Shown here: piece after piece, positions 3,012 to 54,716 of the stretch
Layout of the letters: every line of letters begins with the position of its first letter
Position numbering within the stretch: position 1 is the stretch's first letter
Source of the DNA: Bacillota bacterium
GTDB lineage: Bacteria; Bacillota; Clostridia; TANB77; CAG-508
Assembly: GCA_963929525.1 (NCBI GenBank)
Contig: CAWVJB010000020.1
Location: forward strand, 2,890 to 66,889
Length of the DNA: 64,000 nt
Reading direction: 5' to 3'
Translations under genes and position numbers: made by a program
Notes under the pieces: model-generated
Seen by the model: only the letters and a program-made list of their open reading frames with translations
The model's database searches: none
What the model was told of the DNA's origin: nothing

Positions 3012-4361
3012 TTATCCAACATAATCTGTATAAATGACACGATTCCAGTAATTTAATAAATGCTGTTTTTCTGATTTAGGAACAATATTAATTCTAATAG
3101 CAGAAAAAGGCTTATCATGAGAATAAGTTGTTTCTTCACCATCAGAAGAGGCTCTTAACCAACCAACAGATGGAACATAAATTTGATAAACAATAGAATA
3201 TTCTTCACAATTCTTTAACTGAAAGGCAATTCCAGAAAGACCATATAAATTTTGTTTTGCAATTTCTTGAGGAATAGGATTGGTTTGGTTTAAGCAAGTA
3301 TTGCCAGCTGTATTATGTCCATAGCCACCTAACTGTAAAGTAAATTTACCCAGAAAATGTATAGCATTTTGACTAGAAATGTCAAACCAAGTAGTAGGAC
3401 TAGGTGAATATCCATAGGTATATTTAATTTCAGAAGATTTGCATATAGCACTTGTGTTTTCTCCCCAATAGGTATAATCAAAAACTCTCCCTTGCAATAT
3501 ATGATTATCAATGTCACCATCCAGATAAGTAATGATTCTTTCAGATTTTTTAGAAGAGGAGTCAATAATGGCTTGTTTTCCAGAAATTTCTCCACTATGA
3601 TTAAATTCATTAACAGGATAACCGCTATTATGAGTGGCATAATACAACATGATATTTTTAGCGTGTTGTATATTAACAAAAACTTCGGCTGTGTTTCCAG
3701 CATAATCTGTTATGGTGATAGGATAAGAAATAGGAGAAGAAAATACTTTAGACAAAGAAGAATTTGTATTATAGAAATCCCAACCATTTATAGGTCTTAA
3801 ATTTTCATTAGATTGAATGATATATTGTGATTTATTATTTTCAATAGATAATTCTTTACAAGTAGAAGTAGGAGAAATATTATCAATAGAAATTCCAGTA
3901 TCAAATTTTTGAACATCATTTTTTTGACCAAAAGAATCTTCGATGATGCCTTCTGGAAAAACAATACTTAGATTTCCATTTCCAGATAATTTAGAAAGCA
4001 TAACATCATAAATCAATTCACCAGAATCGTTAGAAAGTAAAAACATATGAATAGATGGATGAGTAAGCGTATCATTTATAAAAATTTGTATATGATCACG
4101 ATTAAATTGATTTATTGCAACATTTTTTTCTGTAATTTTTACTCTAAAAGAAACAACATGTGAAACATTGGCATATTTTTCATATCCTGTATTTGTATTG
4201 GAAATACCTAAAATTTCAATAGTTGGTTTTTTTTGGATTTGAATTTTAGTTGCAGTAAAAGAATCATTAAAGATATATTTTGAAAAACTTATTTGATTAT
4301 GAAATGGTATCCAAAAAAAGAAAATGCAAAATATAAGAATGATAAAAATTTTTTTGTTCAA
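3012..4361 (-). CDS. Membrane-anchored or secreted protein of unknown function with a possible C-terminal ChW-like repeat
   Basis: N-terminal hydrophobic segment followed by FSKY. YQIYVPSVGWLRASSDGEE...AIRINIV resembles a clostridial hydrophobic-W repeat. Confidence 0.5.
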   Translation of the reverse strand: MNKKIFIILIFCIFFFWIPFHNQISFSKYIFNDSFTATKIQIQKKPTIEILGISNTNTGYEKYANVSHVVSFRVKITEKNVAINQFNRDHIQIFINDTLTHPSIHMFLLSNDSGELIYDVMLSKLSGNGNLSIVFPEGIIEDSFGQKNDVQKFDTGISIDNISPTSTCKELSIENNKSQYIIQSNENLRPINGWDFYNTNSSLSKVFSSPISYPITITDYAGNTAEVFVNIQHAKNIMLYYATHNSGYPVNEFNHSGEISGKQAIIDSSSKKSERIITYLDGDIDNHILQGRVFDYTYWGENTSAICKSSEIKYTYGYSPSPTTWFDISSQNAIHFLGKFTLQLGGYGHNTAGNTCLNQTNPIPQEIAKQNLYGLSGIAFQLKNCEEYSIVYQIYVPSVGWLRASSDGEETTYSHDKPFSAIRINIVPKSEKQHLLNYWNRVIYTDYVG

Positions 4362-4707: not shown

Positions 4708-5292
4708 TTGAATAAAAAGAAAACATTTTTGCTAGTGATTTGTATCATATTAGCCATGACATTTGCTTTTTTGGGAGGAAATGTATTTTCTAAATACTTG
4801 TCAGAAATAACAGGAACAGGAACAGCTGAAATAGCCAATTGGGTTTTTAAAGTCAATGGAAAAGAAGATGCAGTGCAAAACATAAATTTATTATCTACAT
4901 ATCATAATGAAACATTAATTAATAATAAAATAGCACCAGGAACAAGTGGAAGTTTCAATATTGTAGTGGATGCAACAGGGTCTGAAGTAGGAGTAGAATA
5001 TGCTATACACTTTTTAAATGAAAGTGAAAAACCAGAAAATTTAATTTTTATCTATGATAATGAAGAATATTTTACAATACAAGATTTAGAAAAAGATTTA
5101 ACAGGAATAATAAATGCAAATGATGAAGAAAAAACAAGAACAATTACAATTTATTGGGAATGGCAATATGAAACTGGAAACAATGAAAATGAAATTAACC
5201 AAAATGACCAAATTGATACAAATAATGCAAAGCAATTAGAAAACTATACATTTGATATCAATGTCAAAGGTATACAAGTTATGCCACAATAA
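4708..5292 (+). CDS. Secreted protein, paralog A, with TasA/camelysin-like signal region (function unknown)
   Basis: TTG start 9 nt after AAAGGAGG. Signal helix is followed by GGNVFSKY (compare TasA GGGTWAAF). KIAPGTSGSFNIVV and IYWEWQYE are shared with 6099..6722. Confidence 0.6.
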   Translation: MNKKKTFLLVICIILAMTFAFLGGNVFSKYLSEITGTGTAEIANWVFKVNGKEDAVQNINLLSTYHNETLINNKIAPGTSGSFNIVVDATGSEVGVEYAIHFLNESEKPENLIFIYDNEEYFTIQDLEKDLTGIINANDEEKTRTITIYWEWQYETGNNENEINQNDQIDTNNAKQLENYTFDINVKGIQVMPQ

Positions 5293-5537: not shown

Positions 5538-6098
5538 TTGAATGTAAATTTTATAAAAAAAACAAAAGGGATGACATTAAAAAATTTAAAAAAAGAACAA
5601 AAGAAATATCATGATAAAAAAAAAGAAATGTTTATCATTTTTAGTGTTTTTATCATAGGAATAACATTTTTTTTGGGTGTCAGTATTGGAAAAGCAGTTC
5701 ATAATACTAATATAAAAAACACAACCCAAATTGCAAAACCAATTTTAGAAGTGGAAAAAGATTCAGAAATCATGATTACAGAAAATAATAAAAAAGGTGA
5801 ATATCATTTTATGGTAAAAAACTTTAATCATACAGATGAGATTTCACAAGTAGATTTAATCTATTACATAGAAATATTAGAAAACAATCTAGATGATTCT
5901 ATTCAATATGAACTATATAAAGATGACAAAAAATTAGAATTGAAAACAAACAAAACAGAACAAATGACATTTCATAAAAATGTAAAAGAAGAACAAAAAT
6001 ATATATTAAAAGTGACATATGATTCTAGTAAAAATAGCATGGAAGATATTATGCAAGAAATACAAATAAAAGTACATTCAGAACAATTAAAAATATAG
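5538..6098 (+). CDS. Membrane-anchored protein of unknown function (beta-rich ectodomain)
   Basis: TTG start after AAAGGAG. K-rich N-terminus, one TM helix, then alternating-polarity strands. Stop abuts the next gene. Confidence 0.55.
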   Translation: MNVNFIKKTKGMTLKNLKKEQKKYHDKKKEMFIIFSVFIIGITFFLGVSIGKAVHNTNIKNTTQIAKPILEVEKDSEIMITENNKKGEYHFMVKNFNHTDEISQVDLIYYIEILENNLDDSIQYELYKDDKKLELKTNKTEQMTFHKNVKEEQKYILKVTYDSSKNSMEDIMQEIQIKVHSEQLKI

Positions 6099-6722
6099 GT
6101 GAGAAAAATGAAAAAAAACAAAAAAATATATATGATGATCATCATCAGTTTGGTATGTATCATTTTGCTGACAATCTATTTTATACAATATGATTTTTTA
6201 CAAGAAGATTTACTATTTTTTCAATTATTCCATTTAAACACATATTCCAATGATAGCTCAGAAAACAATACTTCACAAATTCGTAATACGCAAAAAAATG
6301 CACATATGGAAACAATTTCTTTTTGTGTGCAAAATCAAAATAAAAAATTGAAAGCATTAAATTTAAATAATACTGTAAATAATCAAACTTTAGTAAATGA
6401 AAAAATAGCACCAGGAACAAGTGGTAGATTTGATATTGTATTAAAAAGCTATGAAACTTTAAATTATAAAATTGACTTTAAAAGCGAAAATAAAAAGCCA
6501 ACAAATTTACGTTTCTTTACATCTGAAAATAAAACGACATATAATACCTTAGAAGAATTAGGAAAAAGTTTAACAGGTATTATTTTTCATCATGAAGAAA
6601 AAACAATACCTATTTATTGGCAATGGGATTATGAAATTGATCATCAACAAAATGAACAAGATACCTTAGATGCCGAAGAAATTAAAGAATATCGATTTTT
6701 GATATATGTACAAGGATATTAA
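6099..6722 (+). CDS. Secreted or anchored protein, paralog B of 4708..5292
   Basis: EKIAPGTSGRFDIVL, SLTGII and IYWQWDYE align with paralog A. ATG at 6108 after AGGTGA is the more likely start. Confidence 0.6.
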   Translation: MRKMKKNKKIYMMIIISLVCIILLTIYFIQYDFLQEDLLFFQLFHLNTYSNDSSENNTSQIRNTQKNAHMETISFCVQNQNKKLKALNLNNTVNNQTLVNEKIAPGTSGRFDIVLKSYETLNYKIDFKSENKKPTNLRFFTSENKTTYNTLEELGKSLTGIIFHHEEKTIPIYWQWDYEIDHQQNEQDTLDAEEIKEYRFLIYVQGY

Positions 6723-6954: not shown

Positions 6955-7078
6955 AAACAAAACGGAACAGGATATAGTTATGCTAGAAATGAAATGTTTA
7001 TCATATCAGAAATTCTCATATAATCATAAATTTGGAACATACTAATATCAAATTTATACAAATATGGAGGATTTAAGA

Positions 7079-7666
7079 ATGACCAACAATATTTCTGGCA
7101 TTACTTTAATTAGTTTGGTGATGACAATTATTGTATTATTAATATTAGTATCTATTACGACATACACTGGAATAGATACAATTCATTCGGCTCAATTGAC
7201 AAAATTTACGATAGAATTAAAAATGATGCAACAAAAAGTGAATGAATTATATGATTGCTATATAAATGGGAGAGTTGTAACAATAAATGGAACAGATTAT
7301 GTGGGAAAAGGAGAATATGCCAACCAACATATAGAAAATGAGCAACAGCAAACAATTCAAATTAAACAAGGCGTTCAAGATATTGGAAAACATATAGAGG
7401 ATTATTTTACAACAAACGAGTTAGAAACAATTTTTTCAATAGAAAAATCAGGAGTAACAGACAAAGAAGGGTATAAATATTATGATGAAAAAACTTTACA
7501 AGAATTAGGATTTACAAATATGAAATATCGTTTTTTTGTAAATGTTGCTAATAGAAGTGTGATATGTACAGAAGGATTTCATGATGGAGAGAATATATAT
7601 TATACATTAAACCAAATTCCAGATGGTGTATATAATGTGCAATATAACAATATAGAAATCAACTAA
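7079..7666 (+). CDS. Type IV pilin-like protein lacking Glu5
   Basis: GGAGGA lies 7 nt upstream of ATG 7079. N-terminus is MTNNISG|ITLISLVMTIIVLLILVSI (prepilin-like leader and helix with Ser at +5). The ORF track start at 7064 is less likely. Confidence 0.55.
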   Translation: MTNNISGITLISLVMTIIVLLILVSITTYTGIDTIHSAQLTKFTIELKMMQQKVNELYDCYINGRVVTINGTDYVGKGEYANQHIENEQQQTIQIKQGVQDIGKHIEDYFTTNELETIFSIEKSGVTDKEGYKYYDEKTLQELGFTNMKYRFFVNVANRSVICTEGFHDGENIYYTLNQIPDGVYNVQYNNIEIN

Positions 7667-21526: not shown

Positions 21527-21707
21527 ATGGTAAAAATAGCATTTTTTGATACAAAAAAATTTATCTATATTACTTTCTATGCCAAATGTATTTATTACTT
21601 CTCATCAAGCATTCTTTACTAAAGAAGCTTTAAATAAAATTGCCAGTGATACATTAGAAAATATAAAAAAAGAAATAGAAACAGGGACATGTGAAAATGA
21701 ACTTTAA
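21527..21707 (+). pseudogene. Remnant of D-2-hydroxyacid (D-lactate) dehydrogenase
   Basis: MVKIAFFDTKK (N-terminus) joins, out of frame, to PNVFITSHQAFFTKEALNKIASDTLENI (C-terminus). About 270 internal codons are missing. Confidence 0.5.
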
Positions 21708-21715
21708 AGGATAGA

Positions 21716-21910
21716 GATAATTTTGGGATGGACTCAATTTTCCATTTTTAAATTGAGAAATCTTAAAAATATAGAATATAAAGTCAATATACGATTTTGT
21801 ATAAGCTAAATTTGAATTTAAATACGCAAAATCGTTTTATTTTTATATTCTATATTTTTTATCTTAATGAAATTAGAAAAAAGGGAAAAATGAATTAGTT
21901 CAAAATTCTT
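21716..21910. repeat. Family E-related degenerate palindrome (mini version)
   Basis: Core cgattttgtataagctaaattt...aaatacgcaaaatcg is shared with 24690-24840 and 54400-54550. Nested arms aaaaatatagaatataaa / tttatattctatattttt. Confidence 0.65.
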
Positions 21911-21911
21911 C

Positions 21912-21947
21912 AAAATGTCCCAAACAGAAACGTCCCCAATAGGACAT
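21912..21947 (-). repeat. Family C hairpin, copy 2
   Basis: aaaatgtcccaaacagaaacgtccccaataggacat. On the minus strand it directly follows, and shares A residues with, the sspH TAA. Confidence 0.85.
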
Positions 21948-22129
21948 TAATTATATAAATTTCTTTCATATAAGTCTTGGATAAATACATCTTTTTCTTC
22001 AAAATTGTCAATAAAACCTACTTTTGCTATATTTTCATTGACTCCTTGAATCCATACAGGTCTATCGTCATAAAAAACATCACACTTTTCTTTATTTGCT
22101 AATATAGAATTAATTCTAGAAATATCCAT
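21947..22129 (-). CDS. sspH: H-type small acid-soluble spore protein
   Basis: 60 aa; MDISRINSILANKEKCDVFYDDRPVWIQGVNE fits the SASP-H pattern. GGGAGG RBS. Confidence 0.7.
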   Translation of the reverse strand: MDISRINSILANKEKCDVFYDDRPVWIQGVNENIAKVGFIDNFEEKDVFIQDLYERNLYN

Positions 22130-23990: not shown

Positions 23991-24000
23991 AAAATGTTAA

Positions 24001-24257
24001 AGGTTGCCAAAGGGGACGGGTTAAAATGGCAACTTTTCAATTTTAAATTAAGAATGTTATTGATTAATAAGAAAGGCGTGCATTAACGAAATCAAAGATT
24101 TCGATGCACACATGTGAAGACTGCTTCGCAGTACTTCACGAATATAAGAAGCCTAACCTTGTTGTATACGGAAAAATCTACATAGGGTCAAGATAAAGGT
24201 CGATTTTTCCTATACAATAAAAAAGTTGCCATTTTAACCCGTCCCCTTTGGCAACCT
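24001..24257. repeat. Family B palindrome, copy 2 (arms enclosing other modules)
   Basis: Perfect 37-bp arms aggttgccaaaggggacgggttaaaatggcaactttt. Interior carries module R8 (24136-24209) and two GC-containing hairpins. TTAA on both flanks. Confidence 0.9.
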
Positions 24258-24278
24258 TTAATTGAAAAAGGAGAAAAC

Positions 24279-24593
24279 ATGGAAAATAGAAGATTTATAG
24301 AAATCGATGAAGAATTTATATGTGATAATTGCGGAAAAAAGGTTCCAAAACTAGGCTATTCTTGTAGAGACCATTGTCCATATTGTTTACATTCTAGACA
24401 TGTGGACAAAAATCCAGGAGATAGACAAGAAACTTGCCATGGGGATTTAGAGCCAGTTTCTTTAGAAATTGATGGAAAAAAAGGTTATGTGATTATTTAT
24501 AGATGTAAAACTTGTGGAGCAATTAGAAAAAATAAAGCAGCGAAAGATGATAACATGGATTTAATCATAGATTTAAGCAGTAAACAAATCTGA
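24279..24593 (+). CDS. RNHCP-domain protein
   Basis: CDNCG...RDHCPYCLHSRHVD...CKTCG cysteine pattern of the RNHCP family. Confidence 0.7.
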   Translation: MENRRFIEIDEEFICDNCGKKVPKLGYSCRDHCPYCLHSRHVDKNPGDRQETCHGDLEPVSLEIDGKKGYVIIYRCKTCGAIRKNKAAKDDNMDLIIDLSSKQI

Positions 24594-24939
24594 AACGTTG
24601 AGAACGTGCCAAATCGTTCCAAAATGTGCCAAAAGGGACAGACCTTAACCTATCCACCAAGGGGACTTGTGTTTATATAAAATCATTCACAATTTTGTAT
24701 AAGCTAAATTTTCATAGAATTCTAAAAGAAAAAGATGTATTCATGCACTCAGACCCTCTCGTAACGAGAGTACCGTGCAATTCGTACATCTTTTTCTTTA
24801 AGAATCTCTATATTCAAATTTAGATACGCAAAATCGATTCATTCTTTTATATAAACACAAGTCCCCTTGGTGGATAGGTTAAGGTCTGTCCCTTTTGGCA
24901 CATTTTGGAACGATTTGGCACGTCCCTAACGTTTCAGAT
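24588..24939. repeat. Family E palindrome, copy 1 (352 bp)
   Basis: Arms atctgaaacgtt.agggacgtgccaaatcgttccaaaatgtgccaaaagggacagaccttaacctatccaccaaggggacttgtgtttatataaaa and their complement. Centre ctctcg-taa-cgagag near 24763. Confidence 0.9.
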
Positions 24940-27405
24940 TTCTTTATTCAAATTTCCATTTGTATAATGGCTACCGTCAAACCTTTGATTATTAAGCACT
25001 CTGTGAATAATTTCATTGATTTCTTCAATGGTTTCATCCAAAACATCAATTCTTGCATAATCAACATTGAATTCTTTGGGATAAATAGAGGTGATCTTAC
25101 TATTAAAAATCGTTGTAACTGTTTGAATATTATCAGGTAAAATTCTAAAATTCATATGTAAACGGTCTTTTAATTCATAAATATTATTGGTAATACATCT
25201 TTGCTTACAAGTTGGATAACATTTATCGGTTTCACCTAAAAGACAATAATTCATATTTAATAATGGTGTTCTACCATAAACGATAATTTCATTTGGTAAT
25301 TCTGCACAATTACACAAATCATGAATCATTTTTCTATTTAATTCAGGAGATATGGTATATCGGCAAATTCCTAAATTTTTTAATTCATTGATTGTATGAG
25401 AGTTATATACATTAAAGGTGTAATTGGTAATTAATTCTAGGTTTGTATTAAGATTTGCAAAAAGTGTATGTAATAATTTTATATTACAAATATTTGAAAT
25501 GACAAATCCTTTAATATGATAATTACTTAAAGTGGTTTCTATATTACTAGATAATAGATTTTTATAATTTGATTTGATAATAGTTGGCATATAAATGTAT
25601 ATATTAAATTTATCATCCAGAATATGTAAAATTTCTTGATAATCTTTCATAGAAAAATATTTTAAAGGGATATATACATTTTCAATATCATGAAGTTGTG
25701 TATAATCAAAATCCTTATGCAAAATGTTTAATAATAAAGAAATTTTTGTCTTTTTGATAGAAGAAATAGGCTGTTCCAAATCTTCCTTTTTTACTAGCTT
25801 GTCGATTTCTTTAGTTTCTTTTTTACTTGCAAAGATATTTTTATTAATAATAGAAGAATTTCTTTTCATTGTTCTTATGGCATATAGTTCTACCATTTGT
25901 AAAATCGTTCTTCTTAAATCATTTAATGTACTTAACTTCGGAATAAATACATTATGATCTAATTCGATATCTAAAGTTTTAAAAGCATAAGGAGTAGAAC
26001 CAGTTTTTGAAAATTGTGATATCACTGTATTTTTATCTACTGGTCTGGTGATAGCTTTTAAAGGAAGAATATCACTAGTATATTGTATATTTAAATCTTT
26101 ATATAATTCCATATTACTAGCAGATGTTACTGTAATAGAAATCGGTTTATTTTCCTTAATCACAATATGGCAATTTAAAAGTACTTTTCGATTTTCCTTT
26201 GCACAACTATTTTGTGCCAAAAGATTTAATTTTTTAGAACTCATTTTGAAAATCTGATTTCCTAATTTGATATTTCCTTTCATCCTACCAATTACAACTG
26301 TTTGACCAATTTCTGTAAATTTAATATTTTTCATATTTGTATCCATTAATTCAGAAATGGTATAAGTTCCTTCTTCTTTTTCTAAAGAAATGGTATCACC
26401 AATACCGATAGGTTCATTTAATTTAACCGTAATATATCCTTTTTTGGCATTATATTTTTGAACTTTACCTAAGAATAATCCCATATTGTTTGGCTTTTCT
26501 TTAAAGACTAAATTTCGGTTAGCTTCATTGCTTAAGTGACCAGAAGAAGACATACCTCTATTAAACACTTGTAATAATTCTTTCTTATCATCTTCATCAA
26601 TGATATATTCATTATCAGACAAGGCTAAATCTATATATTTTCGATAAATTCTAGTAACCGTTGCTACATATTCAAGTGATTTCATACGTCCCTCTATTTT
26701 AAAAGACTTTACACCAGCTTGAATTAAATATGGAATAAATTCTAAACCGCATAAATCTCTTGTACTTAATAGATATCCTAAATTGATAGACTTTCCATTT
26801 TCTAATAATTCAAAAGGAAGTCTACAAGGACCTGCGCATTTTCCTCTATTTCCAGAACGTCCACCTAACATACTAGAAAATAGACATTGTCCAGAATAAG
26901 AAATACAAAGTGCTCCATGGATAAAGGTTTCTATTTCAATATTTGTATTTTTACAAATATAATCAATTTCATTAACAGAAAGTTCTCTTGCAAGAACAAC
27001 TCTTTTAAATCCTAGTTCTTGCAATTCTAAAGCTCCATTTAAATTATGGACAGTCATTTGTGTACTAGCATGAATTGGTAAATCAGGAAATGCTCTCATA
27101 AGAGCCATAGCCAATCCTAAATCTTGAACAATAATGGCATCAATTCCAAATTCATAAGCTTTTTTGGCTACATGCATAGCAGATTCAAATTCTGTATCTG
27201 TTACTAAAGTATTTAATGTTAAATGGGTTTTAACACCACGGAGTTTTGCATATTGAATGGCTTTTTCTAAATCTTCAAGAGAAAAATTGGTAGCAAAAGC
27301 TCGCGCACTAAACATATCGGCACCAAAATAAACACTGTTAGCACCATTTTGTACAGCAGCTTTTAAACATTCAAAATCACCAACAGGAGAAAGTAATTCT
27401 ACCAT
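24934..27405 (-). CDS. U32-family peptidase-like protein (long form with DUF3656-like C-terminal region)
   Basis: MVELLSPVGD...AVQNGANSVYFG...ARELS, a typical U32 N-terminal barrel; 823 aa. Confidence 0.85.
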   Translation of the reverse strand: MVELLSPVGDFECLKAAVQNGANSVYFGADMFSARAFATNFSLEDLEKAIQYAKLRGVKTHLTLNTLVTDTEFESAMHVAKKAYEFGIDAIIVQDLGLAMALMRAFPDLPIHASTQMTVHNLNGALELQELGFKRVVLARELSVNEIDYICKNTNIEIETFIHGALCISYSGQCLFSSMLGGRSGNRGKCAGPCRLPFELLENGKSINLGYLLSTRDLCGLEFIPYLIQAGVKSFKIEGRMKSLEYVATVTRIYRKYIDLALSDNEYIIDEDDKKELLQVFNRGMSSSGHLSNEANRNLVFKEKPNNMGLFLGKVQKYNAKKGYITVKLNEPIGIGDTISLEKEEGTYTISELMDTNMKNIKFTEIGQTVVIGRMKGNIKLGNQIFKMSSKKLNLLAQNSCAKENRKVLLNCHIVIKENKPISITVTSASNMELYKDLNIQYTSDILPLKAITRPVDKNTVISQFSKTGSTPYAFKTLDIELDHNVFIPKLSTLNDLRRTILQMVELYAIRTMKRNSSIINKNIFASKKETKEIDKLVKKEDLEQPISSIKKTKISLLLNILHKDFDYTQLHDIENVYIPLKYFSMKDYQEILHILDDKFNIYIYMPTIIKSNYKNLLSSNIETTLSNYHIKGFVISNICNIKLLHTLFANLNTNLELITNYTFNVYNSHTINELKNLGICRYTISPELNRKMIHDLCNCAELPNEIIVYGRTPLLNMNYCLLGETDKCYPTCKQRCITNNIYELKDRLHMNFRILPDNIQTVTTIFNSKITSIYPKEFNVDYARIDVLDETIEEINEIIHRVLNNQRFDGSHYTNGNLNKEI

Positions 27406-35750: not shown

Positions 35751-36029
35751 CTTAAATTAAATGAAAATAAAATATTCTTAGAGTATTGAAATTCAAGTTT
35801 AAAACAAGAAATAAAATACGATAATATATTGACTAAATTCAACACAAATTGAATTAAATAAAAACATAAAGAAAAAATTTTTTTGTAAATAGGTAGTAAG
35901 AGCATTAAAAAATAGAAAGAATGATTGAATAAAGAGAAAAAGAATGCAAATACTATTAAAAAATAAAACATGTTTACTAATGAAAAATTGTATAAACATA
36001 GTAAAGAAGAAAGAAAAGGGGAATTTACA

Positions 36030-37448
36030 ATGAAAGAACAAAAGAGCAAAAAGAATAATGGTATTACTATAATTGCATTAGTCATTACAATTATAGTCTT
36101 GTTAATATTAGCAGGTGTAACGATTGCAACATTAACAGGAGAAAACGGAATTTTGACAAAAGCAAGTGAAGCAAGTGAACAAACTAAAATATCAGAAGAA
36201 AAAGAGGCAATAGGAATTGCATATAGTGGAGTAATGGCATATAATTCAAGAAATGAAGTAAGTGACATAGATTTAGAAAATGAATTAAAGAATAATGGAT
36301 ATAATACGACAGTGACAGATAATGGAGATGGCACATTAAAAGTATTTTTTAAAGATTCACAAAATACTTATAAAGTAGAAAATGGTAGTGTTTCTGAATA
36401 TATAGTAACTGAACAAAAAATGAATTTAGAAACAGGAACAATCCAGACAATCAATTCTGAAACAAAGGAAATCATAAGTGAAGAAAAAGTGGCTATATTA
36501 AAAACAATGAAGTTTTCAACTTCTGCAACAGAAATCTATTTTGTGGATTCAAGAGAACAATCTGATCCAAAACAATATTTAATAGACACATATGGTATTG
36601 ATGAAGCAAATATTGAAAATATAGCTTATAATGATAATTGCTTACCAGTTTATATGGGAAATAATGGAACAATATATTATGTAGCAAGCCAAGGGAATAC
36701 TTACTTGAATAGTGAAGAAGAAGGTGGAGGGTATTGCTTATTTGGAAGAACTGGAGCACCAGCGATTCCAGCACTTCAATCACTGATAAAATTGGATCTT
36801 ACGAATTTAAATACAACATATGCTACAAATATGGCATATATGTTTGCTAAAGCAGGGCATAAAGCATACACTACAGGAGAATACTTGGAAATTATATATG
36901 GTTCGAATTTTGATACTTCTAATGTAGTAACAATGGAATCTATGTATGCTTATGTAGGAATCAAAAATATTATATTACCAGAGTCTTTTAATACAATAAA
37001 AGTGACAAATATGTCATATATGTTTCGTGGTTATTCATCACGATCAATGGTAGAAACAATAGATGTGGGAGAAAATTTTGATACCTCTAATGTAACAAAT
37101 ATGTCACATATGTTTTTGTATTGTGGACTGGACACACTAATATCAATTGATTTAGGAAAAAAATTTGATACTTCACAGGTAACGAATATGGATTCAATGT
37201 TTTTTGCATGTAGTTATGTGTTACCATCTTTAAATTTAGGTAAAAAATTCAATACGACAAATGTAACAGAATATACAAATATGATGATGGGTTGTGGAAA
37301 AGATAATCTAACTGAAATAATCTATGAAGATACGATAGCAAATTTTGAAACAAATTGTGAAATTTTGATCAGTGCACTTGGAAAATCTCCATTTTCTAGT
37401 TGGGATTATCAAGTAACATGTACAGATGGTGAATATAGTGTTAAATAA
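36030..37448 (+). CDS. BspA-type leucine-rich-repeat surface protein with pilin-like N-terminus
   Basis: MKEQKSKKNNG|ITIIALVITIIVLLILAGVTIA leader, followed by repeated FDTSNVTNMSxMF units (DUF285/BspA LRR). Confidence 0.75.
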   Translation: MKEQKSKKNNGITIIALVITIIVLLILAGVTIATLTGENGILTKASEASEQTKISEEKEAIGIAYSGVMAYNSRNEVSDIDLENELKNNGYNTTVTDNGDGTLKVFFKDSQNTYKVENGSVSEYIVTEQKMNLETGTIQTINSETKEIISEEKVAILKTMKFSTSATEIYFVDSREQSDPKQYLIDTYGIDEANIENIAYNDNCLPVYMGNNGTIYYVASQGNTYLNSEEEGGGYCLFGRTGAPAIPALQSLIKLDLTNLNTTYATNMAYMFAKAGHKAYTTGEYLEIIYGSNFDTSNVVTMESMYAYVGIKNIILPESFNTIKVTNMSYMFRGYSSRSMVETIDVGENFDTSNVTNMSHMFLYCGLDTLISIDLGKKFDTSQVTNMDSMFFACSYVLPSLNLGKKFNTTNVTEYTNMMMGCGKDNLTEIIYEDTIANFETNCEILISALGKSPFSSWDYQVTCTDGEYSVK

Positions 37449-37452
37449 CAAC

Positions 37453-37484
37453 AAAGAAGCTTAGACTTTTTCCTAAGCTTCTTT
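37453..37484. terminator. Bidirectional terminator shared by convergent genes
   Basis: aaagaagcttag-N8-ctaagcttcttt. The right arm encodes the last codons (KEA*) of the thioesterase. Confidence 0.7.
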
Positions 37485-37889
37485 TAATGCCTCAAACTTA
37501 TTACTAAAATCAGGACAATGTTTCTTCAAATTAACTGGTCTTAAATTTTTATCAGTAAAACAATGTTTCGTTTCAGCAAAAATAACATCTTTTCCCATTT
37601 TTTTATCTTTTACTTCATAACCAATGGTTAAACGCACACCATTAAAATCTTTTACAGACACTTTAATAGAAATTGTATCAGCAAAAGTCACATGTTGTTT
37701 ATATTTACATTTGACTTCTAAAACAGGAATGGTGATGCCTTGTTCTTCAAATTTTTCAAAAGGCATACCAACTTCTTTTAGCCATGCACATCTAGCTTCT
37801 TCTAAAAATCGAATATAATTAGAGTGATGAACAACACCCATTCTATCTGTTTCATAATAATTTATTGTTCTTTCATATGTAAAACTCAT
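37473..37889 (-). CDS. Acyl-CoA thioesterase (YbgC/4HBT family)
   Basis: YYETDRMGVVHHSNYIRFLEEAR hotdog-fold signature; 138 aa. Confidence 0.8.
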   Translation of the reverse strand: MSFTYERTINYYETDRMGVVHHSNYIRFLEEARCAWLKEVGMPFEKFEEQGITIPVLEVKCKYKQHVTFADTISIKVSVKDFNGVRLTIGYEVKDKKMGKDVIFAETKHCFTDKNLRPVNLKKHCPDFSNKFEALKEA

Positions 37890-43872: not shown

Positions 43873-46702
43873 ATGAATGACAAAATTATCATAAAGGGTG
43901 CAAAAGAACATAATTTAAAAAATATAAATTTAGAAATACCAAGAGATAAATTGGTAGTTATTACAGGGCTATCTGGTTCTGGAAAATCTAGTTTAGCATT
44001 TGATACCTTATATGCAGAAGGTCAAAGAAGATATGTAGAAAGTTTGTCATCTTATGCTAGACAATTCTTAGGATTAATGGAAAAACCAGATGTAGAAAGT
44101 ATAGAAGGATTATCACCAGCGATTTCCATCGATCAAAAAACAACTTCAAAAAATCCTCGTTCCACAGTAGGAACTGTTACAGAAATCTATGACTATATCC
44201 GTTTGTTATATGCCAGAATTGGTGTACCATATTGTCCAAATTGTGGAAAGAAAATAGAAAAACAAACCATTGATCAAATTGTAGATAATATCATGGCGTT
44301 AGAAGAGGGGACTAGAATTCAAGTATTGGCACCAGTGGTTAGAGGAAGAAAAGGTGAATATACAAAACAATTAGAGGAATTCCAAAAAGAAGGATTTGTC
44401 AGAGTTCGAATTGATGGAGAGATGTATGAGCTTTCTGATGACATTACATTAGATAGAAAGAAAAAACACAATATTGAATTAGTAGTAGATAGATTGGTGA
44501 TTAAACCAGAAATCTTAAGTAGATTAACAGAATCAGTAGAAATTGCTTTAAAACATGCAAATCACTTGGTGTTAATTGATGCAGTTGGAAAAGGAGAAAA
44601 ATTATACAGTTGTAATTATGCATGTCCTGATTGTGGTTTTAGTTTTCCAGAATTAACACCTAGAATGTTTTCATTTAATAATCCAATGGGAGCTTGTCCA
44701 ACTTGTACAGGTATTGGATATCTAATGAAAATGGATGAAGACTTAATTATTCCAGATAAGAACAAAACTTTATATGATGGTGTAAAAGCTTTTGGATCAA
44801 GTACCATGAAAAAAGGAGACACCATGGCAAAAATGTATTTTGAAAGTATCGGAAAACATTATGGAATTGATATCAGAGGAAAGAAAATCAAAGAATTGCC
44901 TAGAAGTTTTATGGAAAAAATCTTGTATGGTACAGGTGATGAAGAAATTGATTTTGAATATGCTTCACCAGCAGGAGTAAGAAGATTTACAGCACCATTT
45001 GAAGGGGTACTTCCAACATTAGATAGACGTCATAATGAAACAAAATCACAAGGAATGCGTGATTTTTATGAAATGTATATGACAAATTCTCCATGTTATG
45101 CATGTCATGGAGCCAGATTAAGACCTGAAATTTTGTCTATCAAAGTGGGGGATAAAAATATCAATGAATTAACTGCTATGTCCATTAACCAAATCAAAGA
45201 CTATTTAGATAATTTACAATTAAATAAAACAGAAGCCATGATTTCAGATTTAATTTTAAAAGAAATCCATCAAAGATTACAATTTTTAATGGATGTGGGA
45301 CTAGAATATTTAACACTATCTAGAAGTGCAGGAACTTTGTCAGGAGGAGAAGCACAAAGAATTCGTTTGGCAACACAAATTGGATCTGGTCTAACAGGTG
45401 TATTATATATCTTAGATGAACCAAGTATCGGATTACATCAAAGAGATAATGATCGATTATTAGCAACATTAAAAAAATTAAGAGATTTGGGAAATACTCT
45501 ATTGGTTGTAGAACATGATGAAGATACCATGTATGCAGCAGATCAAGTCATTGACATAGGACCAGGAGCAGGAACACATGGTGGACAAGTGATGGCTCAG
45601 CGGAACGGCTGAAGAAATTAAGCAAGTAGAAAATTCGATTACAGGAAAATATTTAAGTGGAAGATTAAAAATTCCATTACCACAAAAAAGAAGAAAACAT
45701 ACAAAATCAAAAGTCATTGAAGTACAAGGTGCCACAGAAAATAACCTAAAAAATATTAGTGTGAAATTCCCATTAGGCGTATTTACTTGTGTGACAGGAG
45801 TATCTGGTTCAGGAAAGTCTACATTAGTAAATGAAGTGTTATATAAAACCATTGCTAAAGAATTAAATGGTTCTAATGAAAAACCAGGAAAATGTAAGGG
45901 AATCAAAGGTATTAATCAAATTGACAAAATTATTAATATAGATCAATCACCAATTGGAAGAACGCCTCGTTCAAATCCAGCAACATATACAGGTGTATTT
46001 GATTTTATTAGAGATATTTTTGCTGAAACAGAAGAAGCAAAATTAAGAGGATATCAAAAGGGAAGATTTAGCTTTAATGTTGAAGGAGGAAGATGTGAAA
46101 GTTGTCATGGTGATGGTGTGCATAAAATTGAAATGCATTTCTTGCCAGATATCTATGTACCTTGTGAAGTGTGTAAAGGAAAAAGATACAACAGAGAAAC
46201 CTTAGAGGTAAAATATAAAGGAAAAACCATTGCAGATGTGCTAGACATGACAGTTGAAGAGGCTTTACAATTTTTTGATAAAATACCAAGAATTAAACAA
46301 AAAATTCAAACATTATATGATGTAGGATTAAGTTATATCAAATTAGGACAGCCATCAACAACCTTATCAGGAGGAGAAGCACAAAGAGTAAAATTAGCAA
46401 CAGAATTATCAAAAAAAGCAACAGGAAAAACATTATATATTTTAGACGAACCAACCACAGGACTTCATATTGCAGATGTTCATAAATTGGTAGATATCTT
46501 ACAAAGATTAGTCGATACAGGAAATACGATTATTGTTATCGAGCATAATCTAGATTTAATCAAAACTTGTGATCATATTATTGACTTAGGTCCAGAAGGT
46601 GGAGACAATGGAGGAGAAGTCGTTGCTGTTGGAACACCTGAGCAGGTTTGTTTAAATGAGAAAAGCTATACAGGTAAATTTTTGAAGAAATATTTAGAAT
46701 AA
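43873..46702 (+). pseudogene. uvrA: Excinuclease ABC subunit A with a +1 frameshift near 45601
   Basis: Frame 1 ends [10 protein letters not shown]. The next frame continues [20 protein letters not shown]... through the second ABC module to 46702. An extra C appears in gctcagCggaacg. Confidence 0.85.
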
Positions 46703-53858: not shown

Positions 53859-54305
53859 ATGGTAGAAAAAAATAATAAATTAACAATAAGAGTGGCAGGC
53901 ATTGTACCCGTGGATAATGGATTTATATTTATGCATAGAAAAAAAGTAAAAAGGAATAAGGATTATGAGGAATACTATACTTTCCCAGGAGGACATTTAG
54001 AAAATGGCGAAACATTAGAAGAAGGAGTTATCAGAGAAATTAAAGAAGAATTCGGTATAAAGGTAAAAGTAATAAAGAAATTATATGAATTAGAAAATAA
54101 TAAATTGAATATGAAAGAATATTTCTTTTTATGTGAATATATAGAAGGAAAATTTGGAACAGGAGATGGAGAAGAATTTTTCAATAATCCAGAATATAAA
54201 GATTCTGGTGAATATATTCCAGAAATTATGAAAAAAGAAGACATATCAAAAATTGTGTTATTACCACCAGAAATAAAAGAAAAGTTTTTAAAAGATTTCT
54301 GTTAG
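53859..54305 (+). CDS. NUDIX hydrolase
   Basis: GGHLENGETLEEGVIREIKEEFG Nudix box. ATG 53859 follows GGAGGG. Confidence 0.8.
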   Translation: MVEKNNKLTIRVAGIVPVDNGFIFMHRKKVKRNKDYEEYYTFPGGHLENGETLEEGVIREIKEEFGIKVKVIKKLYELENNKLNMKEYFFLCEYIEGKFGTGDGEEFFNNPEYKDSGEYIPEIMKKEDISKIVLLPPEIKEKFLKDFC

Positions 54306-54637
54306 GGACGTGCCAAATCGTTTCAAAATGAGCCCAAAAGGGACAGACCTTAACCTTTTCGTTCCAAAGGAACCTGTAGTTATATAAAGTCACTCACGAT
54401 TTTGTATAAGCTAAATTTTCATAGAATTCTAAAATAAAAAAAATGTATTCATGCACTCAGACCCTCTCATAACGAGAGTACCGTGCAATTCATACATTTT
54501 TTTATTTAAGAATTTCTACATTCAAATTTAGATACGCAAAATCGATTCGTTTTTTATATAACTACAGATCCCTTTGGAACGAAAAGGTTAAGGTCTGTCT
54601 CTTTTGGGCTCATTTTGAAATGATTTGACACGTCCTC
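54302..54637. repeat. Family E palindrome, copy 2 (336 bp)
   Basis: ttagggacgtgccaaatcgtttcaaaatgagcccaaaagggacagaccttaacc... and its complement. The central ~150 bp is nearly identical to copy 1. Confidence 0.9.
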
Positions 54638-54716
54638 AAAAAACAAAAAAAAAATCAAAAATTTGTTTGACATTTTTTTGTTTGTATGATATGATGAGAC
54701 AAAATAGGAGAATGGA

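Follow-up and report, generated by a model that had tools for sequence, protein, structure and literature searches.

A mobile REP/MITE-like palindrome in terminator position between convergent RNHCP and U32 genes of gut Clostridia, with arms that evolve in step

Background

The Correia elements of Neisseria, ERIC and the RPE of Rickettsia are grouped with the bacterial MITEs that overlap the 3′ ends of genes. Bidirectional intrinsic terminators place a hairpin in the very short spacer of a convergent gene pair, with complementary A/T tracts that run over the gene ends. Repeat-containing terminators have also been described (PMC1852404). In Coxiella, every functional gene affected by QMITE1 or QMITE2 is struck at its 3′ end, with an overlap of 1–50 bp, and the C-terminal residues and stop codons come from the element (PMC5896051).

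The REP, BIME and REPIN sequences of Proteobacteria, including the "CGTC-tagged" REP superfamily, form another group for comparison (PMC3733652, PMC3116915). REPs are located mostly between convergent or tandem genes, often within bidirectional terminators (bioRxiv 10.64898/2026.03.23.713779), and CGTC/GTAG REPs have not been reported in Firmicutes (PMC3733652). Homogenisation of the arms of inverted repeats is known from experiments on short repeats in E. coli and from phylogenetics in yeast, and template switching with this effect is documented in coding DNA (PMC7202029, PMC8604942).

The palindrome described here, E1, is a mobile REP/MITE-like repeat in terminator position whose arms evolve in step. 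The class of phenomenon is already known; the repeat family seems undescribed in this group of gut Clostridia.

Genomic context and sampled loci

The window, that is, the whole stretch of 64,000 nt that was analysed (contig CAWVJB010000020.1), comes from an uncultured gut Clostridium and is AT-rich, with a G+C content of 28%. E1 is located between two converging genes. The first is an RNHCP-domain gene of 104 aa on the plus strand (24279..24593), identified as an ORF with PF12647 homologues; the second is a peptidase U32/DUF3656 gene of 823 aa on the minus strand (24934..27405), identified as an ORF and by the Pfam domains of its orthologues.

The scan of species-representative genomes with the RNHCP profile revealed 80 loci, all of them in MAGs of uncultured gut Clostridia (hosts: chicken, human, mouse, rabbit and others), with RNHCP identities of 79–97%. 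Further RNHCP/U32 loci were drawn from metagenome contigs, and the comparison of C-termini comprised about 90 rows. The order PRK, RNHCP and convergent U32 is kept throughout the loci compared, and the flanking genes present about 88–92% nucleotide identity within the window's clade. Seven loci (L022, L023, L052, L056, L080, L081 and L083) present an RNHCP–U32 spacer of 0.9–1.5 kb, apparently with an extra gene, and the convergent RNHCP–U32 arrangement has been broken more than once.

Long perfect palindromes cause assembly chimeras in MAGs. Protein P0089, encoded on a metagenome contig of 663 nt, joins the N-terminal part of RNHCP in frame to the C-terminal tail of U32; the parent genes are convergent, and the palindrome has probably led to a chimeric assembly here.

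Two observations concern other parts of the window. The uvrA gene (43873-46702) is split into ORFs 43873-45612 and 45761-46702 by a +1 frameshift at gctcagcggaacggctgaa (45590-45620), which represents a pseudogene or an assembly or sequencing error. Between positions 411 and 7663, six consecutive ORFs (411-1112, 3015-4361, 4708-5289, 5538-6095, 6099-6719 and 7064-7663) gave no Pfam match at 1e-5.

Structure of the palindrome E1

The repeat search and the fold delimit E1 to 24581..24946, a hairpin-forming sequence of 366 bases that comprises the dispersed repeat and a locus-specific outer extension into both genes. In the repeat search, its arms (24581-24682 and 24845-24946) are 102 nt long, 96% complementary and 162 nt apart, and they are perfect over 79 nt. 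Folded as RNA, the 366 nt form one long hairpin with a stem of about 150 pairs (−216.6 kcal/mol, z = −29.6). One 41-mer of the arm occurs exactly twice in the window, once per strand, against 0 occurrences expected in shuffles. The only internal coding sequence is a spurious ORF of 65 aa. An assembly artefact was considered and rejected, since the same element occupies the same site in the independent assemblies L001, L012 and L017.

The original prediction held that a palindrome overlaps the last codon and the stop codon of both genes, and the repeat search, the ORFs and the fold confirmed it; the interval given, 24588-24939, spans exactly from Ile codon to Ile codon. The RNHCP gene ends AGT AAA CAA ATC TGA and the U32 gene ends AAT AAA GAA ATC TGA, and the mirror symmetry spans three codons and the stop of each gene, i.e. 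AAA CAA ATC TGA at 24582-24593 (plus strand) inside the left arm and AAA GAA ATC TGA at 24934-24945 (minus strand) inside the right arm. The 14 nt shared by both ends had been taken for the outermost arms. The perfect 14-mer AAATCTGAAACGTT is indeed common to both arms (24586..24599 on the left; its mirror AACGTTTCAGATTT, found by sequence comparison, at 24928..24941 on the right), but complementarity reaches 5 nt further out, with one C/G mismatch that corresponds to Gln versus Glu.

This outer 14-mer co-varies between the arms across species and is not present in E2, the second copy in the window. The alignment of E1 and E2 showed no counterpart in E2 for the outer 12 nt of E1, AAATCTGAAACG, and the two copies align only inward from TT(A/G)(A/G)G(A/G)ACG. 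Judged from this alignment, AAATCTGAAACG is not clearly part of the dispersed repeat.

At the centre of E1, the repeat search and the fold located a hairpin at 24719..24805, with arms 24719-24739 and 24785-24805 that are 95% complementary, flanked by A5/T5 runs. Its position and these A/T runs make it a candidate bidirectional terminator. The promoter and terminator consensus scans gave matches no commoner than in shuffles, and no terminator site was called at E1. The search against Rfam 15 revealed only two tRNAs in the window; E1 reached no family's gathering threshold, and at a relaxed threshold its only matches were to generic models of long-hairpin miRNA precursors, with scores well under their thresholds.

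Modular organization, dispersal and turnover

The repeat E is modular and nested: arms A (TT(A/G)GGGACGTGCCAAATCG...) and B (AAAAGGGACAGACC...) surround a core C of about 180 nt, and both the outer and the inner arms are of the GGGGACG type. In E1, sequence comparison placed module A (TTGAGAACGTGCCAAATCGTTCCAAAATGTGC) at 24598..24629, with its mirror at 24898-24929, and module B (CAAAAGGGACAGACC...) at 24630..24674, with its mirror at 24853-24897. Core C (24675..24852, plus strand) is an imperfect palindrome with a conserved asymmetry, and copies of it occur within other arms.

At the RNHCP/U32 site, module A alone forms a short palindrome in L010, L019 and L024, where the spacers have 57–59 nt; A+B is present in L126, and A+B+C in the window, L001/L012 and L017. 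Module A alone is also found at other loci (L073 and L173), and in L126 and L177 A+B palindromes enclose little or no further sequence. The interior also turns over between fixed arms at the NUDIX site occupied by E2, where the A+B arms hold core C in the window, a different palindromic interior of 200 nt in L174 and almost nothing in L177.

The metagenome scan with 18-mers returned 84 loci, of which 15 are real relatives and the rest chance AT-rich matches. Core C is present in at least 10 metagenome contigs, where the palindromes that enclose it are of at least four unrelated kinds and have it precisely at their centre. A truncated copy of core C, with its centre deleted, is located at 21776-21848 of the window. 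E2 presents 92.6% identity to the copy at the RNHCP/U32 site of L017 and 85.7% to E1, which suggests that copies move or convert between sites.

No target-site duplication was found at E2, at E1 or at the PRK–RNHCP unit, and the flanks of E1 are inverted, not direct, repeats. A TA duplication was considered for the terminus of arm A and for core C, and was dropped because the junctions were inconsistent. A Pfam scan of about 40 further proteins of the window revealed no transposase, and neither the window nor the listed neighbour genes included a RAYT gene. The searches revealed no plasmid relatives; in viral contigs an 18-mer gave no match and a 15-mer gave 19 chance matches, in unrelated GC-richer contigs.

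The GGGGACG motif and the neighbouring palindromes

The window contains 15 copies of GGGGACG, against less than 1 predicted from base composition by our own calculation; sites include 11877, 18962, 24013, 34365, 42708, 50509 and 59995. The motif, which is half of the palindrome GGGGACGTCCCC, is always directed at the centre of its palindrome and is found in several otherwise different families of hairpin units. Inverted doublets of such units in the window are I4 and I9–I12.

The spacer upstream of RNHCP contains one more palindrome (23997..24261, 265 nt by repeat search), formed by two inverted GTTGCCAAAGGGGACGGGTTAAAATGGCAAC hairpin units. The PRK–RNHCP spacer (23991-24278 in the window) is hypervariable: its length in sister species (L010-L024) lies between 8 nt, as in L015, and 288 nt, and its units differ, with one in L011/L016, two as a doublet in the window, and quite different ones of the GGGGACG type in other sisters. 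These comparisons show that the neighbourhood is a hotspot for palindromic repeats.

In this compact genome many such palindromes abut stop codons. For the TGTCC..TTGGGGACG units, the stop of a long ORF lies 0–4 nt upstream in 12 of the 23 distinct copies, with exact abutment in 7. The abutment may reflect targeting of sequence near stop codons, the second option of the original prediction, but tiny spacers combined with purifying selection would also produce this frequency. The centre-deleted core C belongs to another palindromic element (21700-21950), whose right arm abuts the TAA of SspH (TAA directly followed by TGTCC). The SspH protein ends ...RNLYN unchanged whatever abuts it, its stop being TAA before TGTCC in the window and TAG before AGACG in L073. 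Just upstream, at about 21528-21706, a short ORF fragment looks like the remnant of a dehydrogenase gene.

C-termini of RNHCP and U32 across relatives

The original prediction also proposed that the element had replaced the native 3′ ends of the two genes. For RNHCP and U32 this is not so at the protein level, because SKQI-stop and N[KR]EI-stop are found across the clade whatever the spacer. Most of the best 120 RNHCP homologues end ...LSSKQI, and RNHCP ends SKQI-stop or SRQI-stop in about 55 of 90 rows; U32 ends N(K/R)EI-stop in most of about 90 rows. These ends are kept where the spacer is a plain hairpin with a 19-bp stem (L006-L009), another repeat (L002-L004) or an AT-rich hairpin (L032, L041). 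Since the same ends are found where the spacer is an unrelated hairpin, Ile-stop is ancestral in both genes.

The codons tell a different part of the history. Where the spacer is unrelated, Ile and the stop are encoded by other synonymous triplets (ATT TAA, ATA TAA). The idea that the repeat encodes Ile-stop therefore fails for the residues, which are ancestral, but it is valid for the nucleotides of the last codon and stop, which behave as part of the palindrome. Likewise, orthologues have identical C-terminal residues but not identical 3′ flanks, which is one half of the pattern named beforehand as the sign that the arms merely evolved from pre-existing sequence. A distant clade whose elements are unrelated also commonly has ATT TGA at the end of RNHCP.

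In nearly all species the RNHCP–U32 spacer is a palindrome that begins 0–6 nt from both stops, and where this spacer has 30–60 nt, the hairpin of each gene takes its T-tract from the A-rich last codons of the other gene. In another convergent pair of the window, 35970-37448 (plus) and 37473-37889 (minus), the spacer has only 24 nt (37449-37472) and forms a non-repeat hairpin, whose right arm consists of the last three codons and the stop of the minus-strand thioesterase gene. This pair and the short palindromic spacers indicate that the overlap of hairpins with gene ends is a general habit of this compact genome.

Arms that change together

In any one genome, the two arms agree in the last codon, the stop and the bases that directly follow it. 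In the window's clade, genomes whose A-type arms are both intact share one hexamer between the two genes: ATC TGA in the window and in L001, L012, L017, L010, L011, L014 and L018, ATT TAA in L019 and ATT TGA in L024. The bases from the stop to TTGGGG vary by species (AACG, ACG, ACCA, ACAA) and are mirrored within each genome. In L013, L015, L016 and L020 the left arm has been replaced by another hairpin, and in L126 the right arm carries an insertion. The stop differs between the two genes in all five of these arm-broken lineages, and the Ile codon in four of the five (L013, L015, L016 and L126), L020 having retained ATT in both genes. Where the left arm is replaced, RNHCP ends AT(T/A) TAA instead of ATC TGA.

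Among the 42 loci where both genes end in Ile, the Ile+stop hexamer matches between the genes in 18, against 7.1 expected by permutation with phylogeny ignored; the seven loci with ATCTGA in both genes may represent one single event. RNAalifold, in counts likewise uncorrected for phylogeny, showed double-sided changes in 29 of 151 pairs for four long copies and in 8 of 40 pairs for three short palindromes; in the latter, the third base of one Ile codon pairs with that of the other, and this pair is among the changed ones. Such double changes are equally expected from selection for an RNA or a DNA stem. Two amino acid changes in U32 made the palindrome more perfect: the near clade has K in place of R, and L021, which ends NKQI, has Q in place of E.

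Orthologous arms differ by about 19% between species, though the arms are perfect over 79 nt within the window. In addition, L011, L014 and L018 present asymmetric 34-nt spacers, which are deletion derivatives across TTGG microhomology, as unstable palindromes would give.

The copy E2 and the NUDIX gene

E2 (54303..54637, plus strand) contains modules A+B+C. Its arms (54306-54388 and 54553-54635) are 83 nt long and 94% complementary, and its identity to E1 is about 86–87%. The left terminus TTAGGGACG holds the TAG stop of a NUDIX gene (54303-54305), exactly as had been read from the sequence at first. This gene (53859..54305, plus strand) encodes 148 aa from the conserved start and ends DFC-stop, a C-terminus that is shortened and rewritten in comparison with element-free orthologues, which are four residues longer (...DLxxGxL-stop).

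The NUDIX proteins exist in two forms. The long form, mostly of 152 aa and ending ...EIKEKFVQDLQEGKL, is the majority and includes the most divergent sequences, and the short form has 141–148 aa and ends ...EIKEKFLKDFC. At the empty sites L180-182 and L185, the protein has 152 aa (146 aa in L185) and ends DLxxGxL-stop or DLRNRKI-stop. The element-bearing genes (window, L174 and L177) and the gene of L183, which keeps a 21-nt arm remnant, have the short form and end DFC-stop or EFC-stop, with the TAG in the arm terminus, within T TAG GGACG. All the long-form loci examined are empty, and all the short-form loci carry the element or an arm remnant. At this gene, then, replacement of the native 3′ end did take place: about 27 nt of native sequence present in empty sites, comprising the final 6 codons, the stop and a few further nucleotides, are gone from filled ones, without duplication. 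The neighbour-joining tree splits the proteins with the short C-terminus in two, and three long-form proteins are interspersed with them, a pattern that either one insertion or two may have produced.

At its right end, E2 is followed directly by the conserved promoter region of lexA (TTGACA...TATGATATGAT; window 54638-54716). Empty and filled sites alike keep this region unchanged, which places E2 between the stop codon of NUDIX and the promoter of lexA.

Origin of the mirrored gene ends

We propose, with moderate confidence, that E1 is a dispersed modular repeat in a terminator slot, that the gene ends are ancestral, and that the arms are homogenised within the genome. E1 is one copy of a non-coding REP/BIME- or MITE-like repeat, with modules A+B enclosing core C, in the RNHCP/U32 spacer, flanked by two housekeeping genes, where related species appear to carry a short bidirectional terminator hairpin. 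With A-rich Lys-(Gln/Glu)-Ile-stop as the ancestral terminus of both genes, the two ends were already nearly reverse-complementary. What keeps the arms alike would most likely be the copying of one arm onto the other at the level of DNA, with quasipalindrome template switching and intramolecular conversion as candidate mechanisms and selection on pairing as the alternative. Homogenisation would spread outward until purifying selection on the proteins halts it. A limit of this kind would account both for the Ile codon, stop and first spacer bases being identical in the two arms and for the only outer mismatch being C/G (Gln versus Glu). When an arm instead comes down in a dispensable C-terminal tail, as happened to NUDIX with E2, the stop triplet of the arm terminus (TTAG) serves as the new stop.

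A related but somewhat doubtful possibility is that the palindromes are self-extending, growing by arm copying or fold-back and gaining modules at their centres by enzyme-driven insertion. Outward growth would then rewrite synonymous codons, stop choice and occasional residues (U32 R to K; E to Q in L021). Central modules would be inserted precisely by an enzyme that recognises GGGGACG(TCCCC), giving nested palindromes that turn over fast between species of one genus.

The reading from which the study started, in which a mobile element bears the last codon and stop at both termini and overwrote the 3′ ends of RNHCP and U32, is unlikely. The element demonstrably replaced the native tail of NUDIX and supplies its TAG. 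The SspH gene of L073 has its TAG within TTAGAGACG, where most relatives use TAA, and most gene ends that touch an A-type arm have TGA. The use of AT(T/A) TAA by RNHCP where the left arm is replaced points the same way. TGAAC.. or AACGTT recurs beside TT(A/G)GGGACG at three unrelated loci. The AACGTT that adjoins TTAGGGACG recurs at the unrelated L073 locus, and TGAACCATT recurs at the NUDIX-site element of L174/L177, at whose right end AATGGTTCA may be either element or native flank, and in both arms of L024. From these recurrences, a longer version of the mobile unit could account for some of the outer arm, perhaps with the TGA. If many copies carried (ATC)TGAAACGTT at their ends, the mobile unit would include the stop, and if independent copies elsewhere ended in ATCTGAAACGTT, then outer arm, codon and stop would all be the mobile unit. 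On the other hand, the KQI and KEI/REI residues are ancestral; E2, L173 and the right end of L073 are without the outer sequence; and ATT TGA at RNHCP accompanies unrelated elements in the distant clade. Moreover, the bases between the stop and TTGGGG differ by species yet match across the arms, which resembles co-evolution in place rather than a fixed terminus.

We also consider it improbable that selection acted at the RNA level only, with E1 as a bidirectional terminator or 3′-UTR stabiliser and the paired changes as compensatory ones, codons and stops included. The position between convergent genes is that of a terminator, the short forms resemble classical terminators with A/U tracts, double changes are abundant, and the REPs of E. 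coli between convergent genes act as bidirectional terminators or decay blocks (bioRxiv 10.64898/2026.03.23.713779). However, a stem of about 150 pairs (−217 kcal/mol) gains nothing from a few terminal pairs, and the terminator scan gave no canonical site. The stop and the next 12 nt or so lie inside the terminating ribosome, and terminators whose hairpin begins within a few nt of a stop are covered by it and repressed (PMC4824070). Arms that are perfect over 79 nt, when orthologous arms diverge by about 19%, point to recent copying and not to stepwise compensation. For these reasons, namely the redundancy of the outermost pairs, their place under the ribosome and the perfection of the arms, we prefer a DNA-level cause for the outermost pairs. 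The documented cases in which template switching homogenised inverted-repeat arms in coding DNA (PMC8604942, PMC7202029) speak for it as well.

Coincidence, with both proteins happening to end in Lys-Gln/Glu-Ile and the codons not linked to the palindrome, is very improbable: the near-identity of the two C-termini is indeed ancestral and older than the element, and an AT-rich genome narrows codon choice, but matched Ile+stop hexamers are about 2.5 times commoner than expected (phylogeny ignored) and the 4–6 non-coding bases past the stop are also mirrored and change in step between species.

Comparison with known systems

The E1 locus offers a well-documented natural series of about 80 species on how palindromic repeats meet gene ends in a compact genome. 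E1 overlaps two genes and neither protein is altered, and its arms evolve in step even within codons; E2 shortened and rewrote one C-terminus and gave it its stop. Gene callers and pangenome tools will meet variable 3′ ends and stops at such palindrome sites.

As in bidirectional terminators, E1 is a hairpin between convergent genes with A/T tracts that overlap the gene ends. Unlike a terminator hairpin, it is ten times longer and is a dispersed repeat, and its role in termination is suggested by its position. E1 resembles the cases of quasipalindrome template switching in that both arms changed at once and an imperfect palindrome was perfected, also in coding sequence; here the process would be read solely from comparison between species, unlike in those cases.

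The comparison with REPs is close in several respects. Both consist of short hairpin units that share a brief conserved motif, in this case GGGGACG (CGTCCCC when read on the opposite strand). The units are mostly inverted doublets that fold into larger hairpins, as in REPINs, with singlets as well, and they combine as mosaics outside genes, chiefly in 3′ flanks or in the spacers of convergent pairs. Close relatives differ in their content, and they have been proposed to act as terminators or in the 3′ UTR. On the other hand, the host is a low-GC uncultured Clostridium, the motif lies in loops or arm interiors and does not look like an unpaired tag such as the GTAG or CGTC at one end of the 20–40-nt REP units, and the elements reach 330 nt with a conserved core of 180 nt. 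The stems and loops also do not fit the architecture of 8–9 bp and 4–5 nt of the CGTC REPs (PMC3733652).

With MITEs, E shares terminal inverted repeats without coding capacity, strong folding and many copies dispersed at unrelated loci. It differs in that neither a direct target-site duplication nor a cognate IS was found among the window proteins and the compared sites, and in its nested modular structure, where the core is always central in another palindrome. The NUDIX gene with E2 represents the situation described for Coxiella; at E1, unlike in the Coxiella MITEs, the overlap leaves both proteins unchanged.
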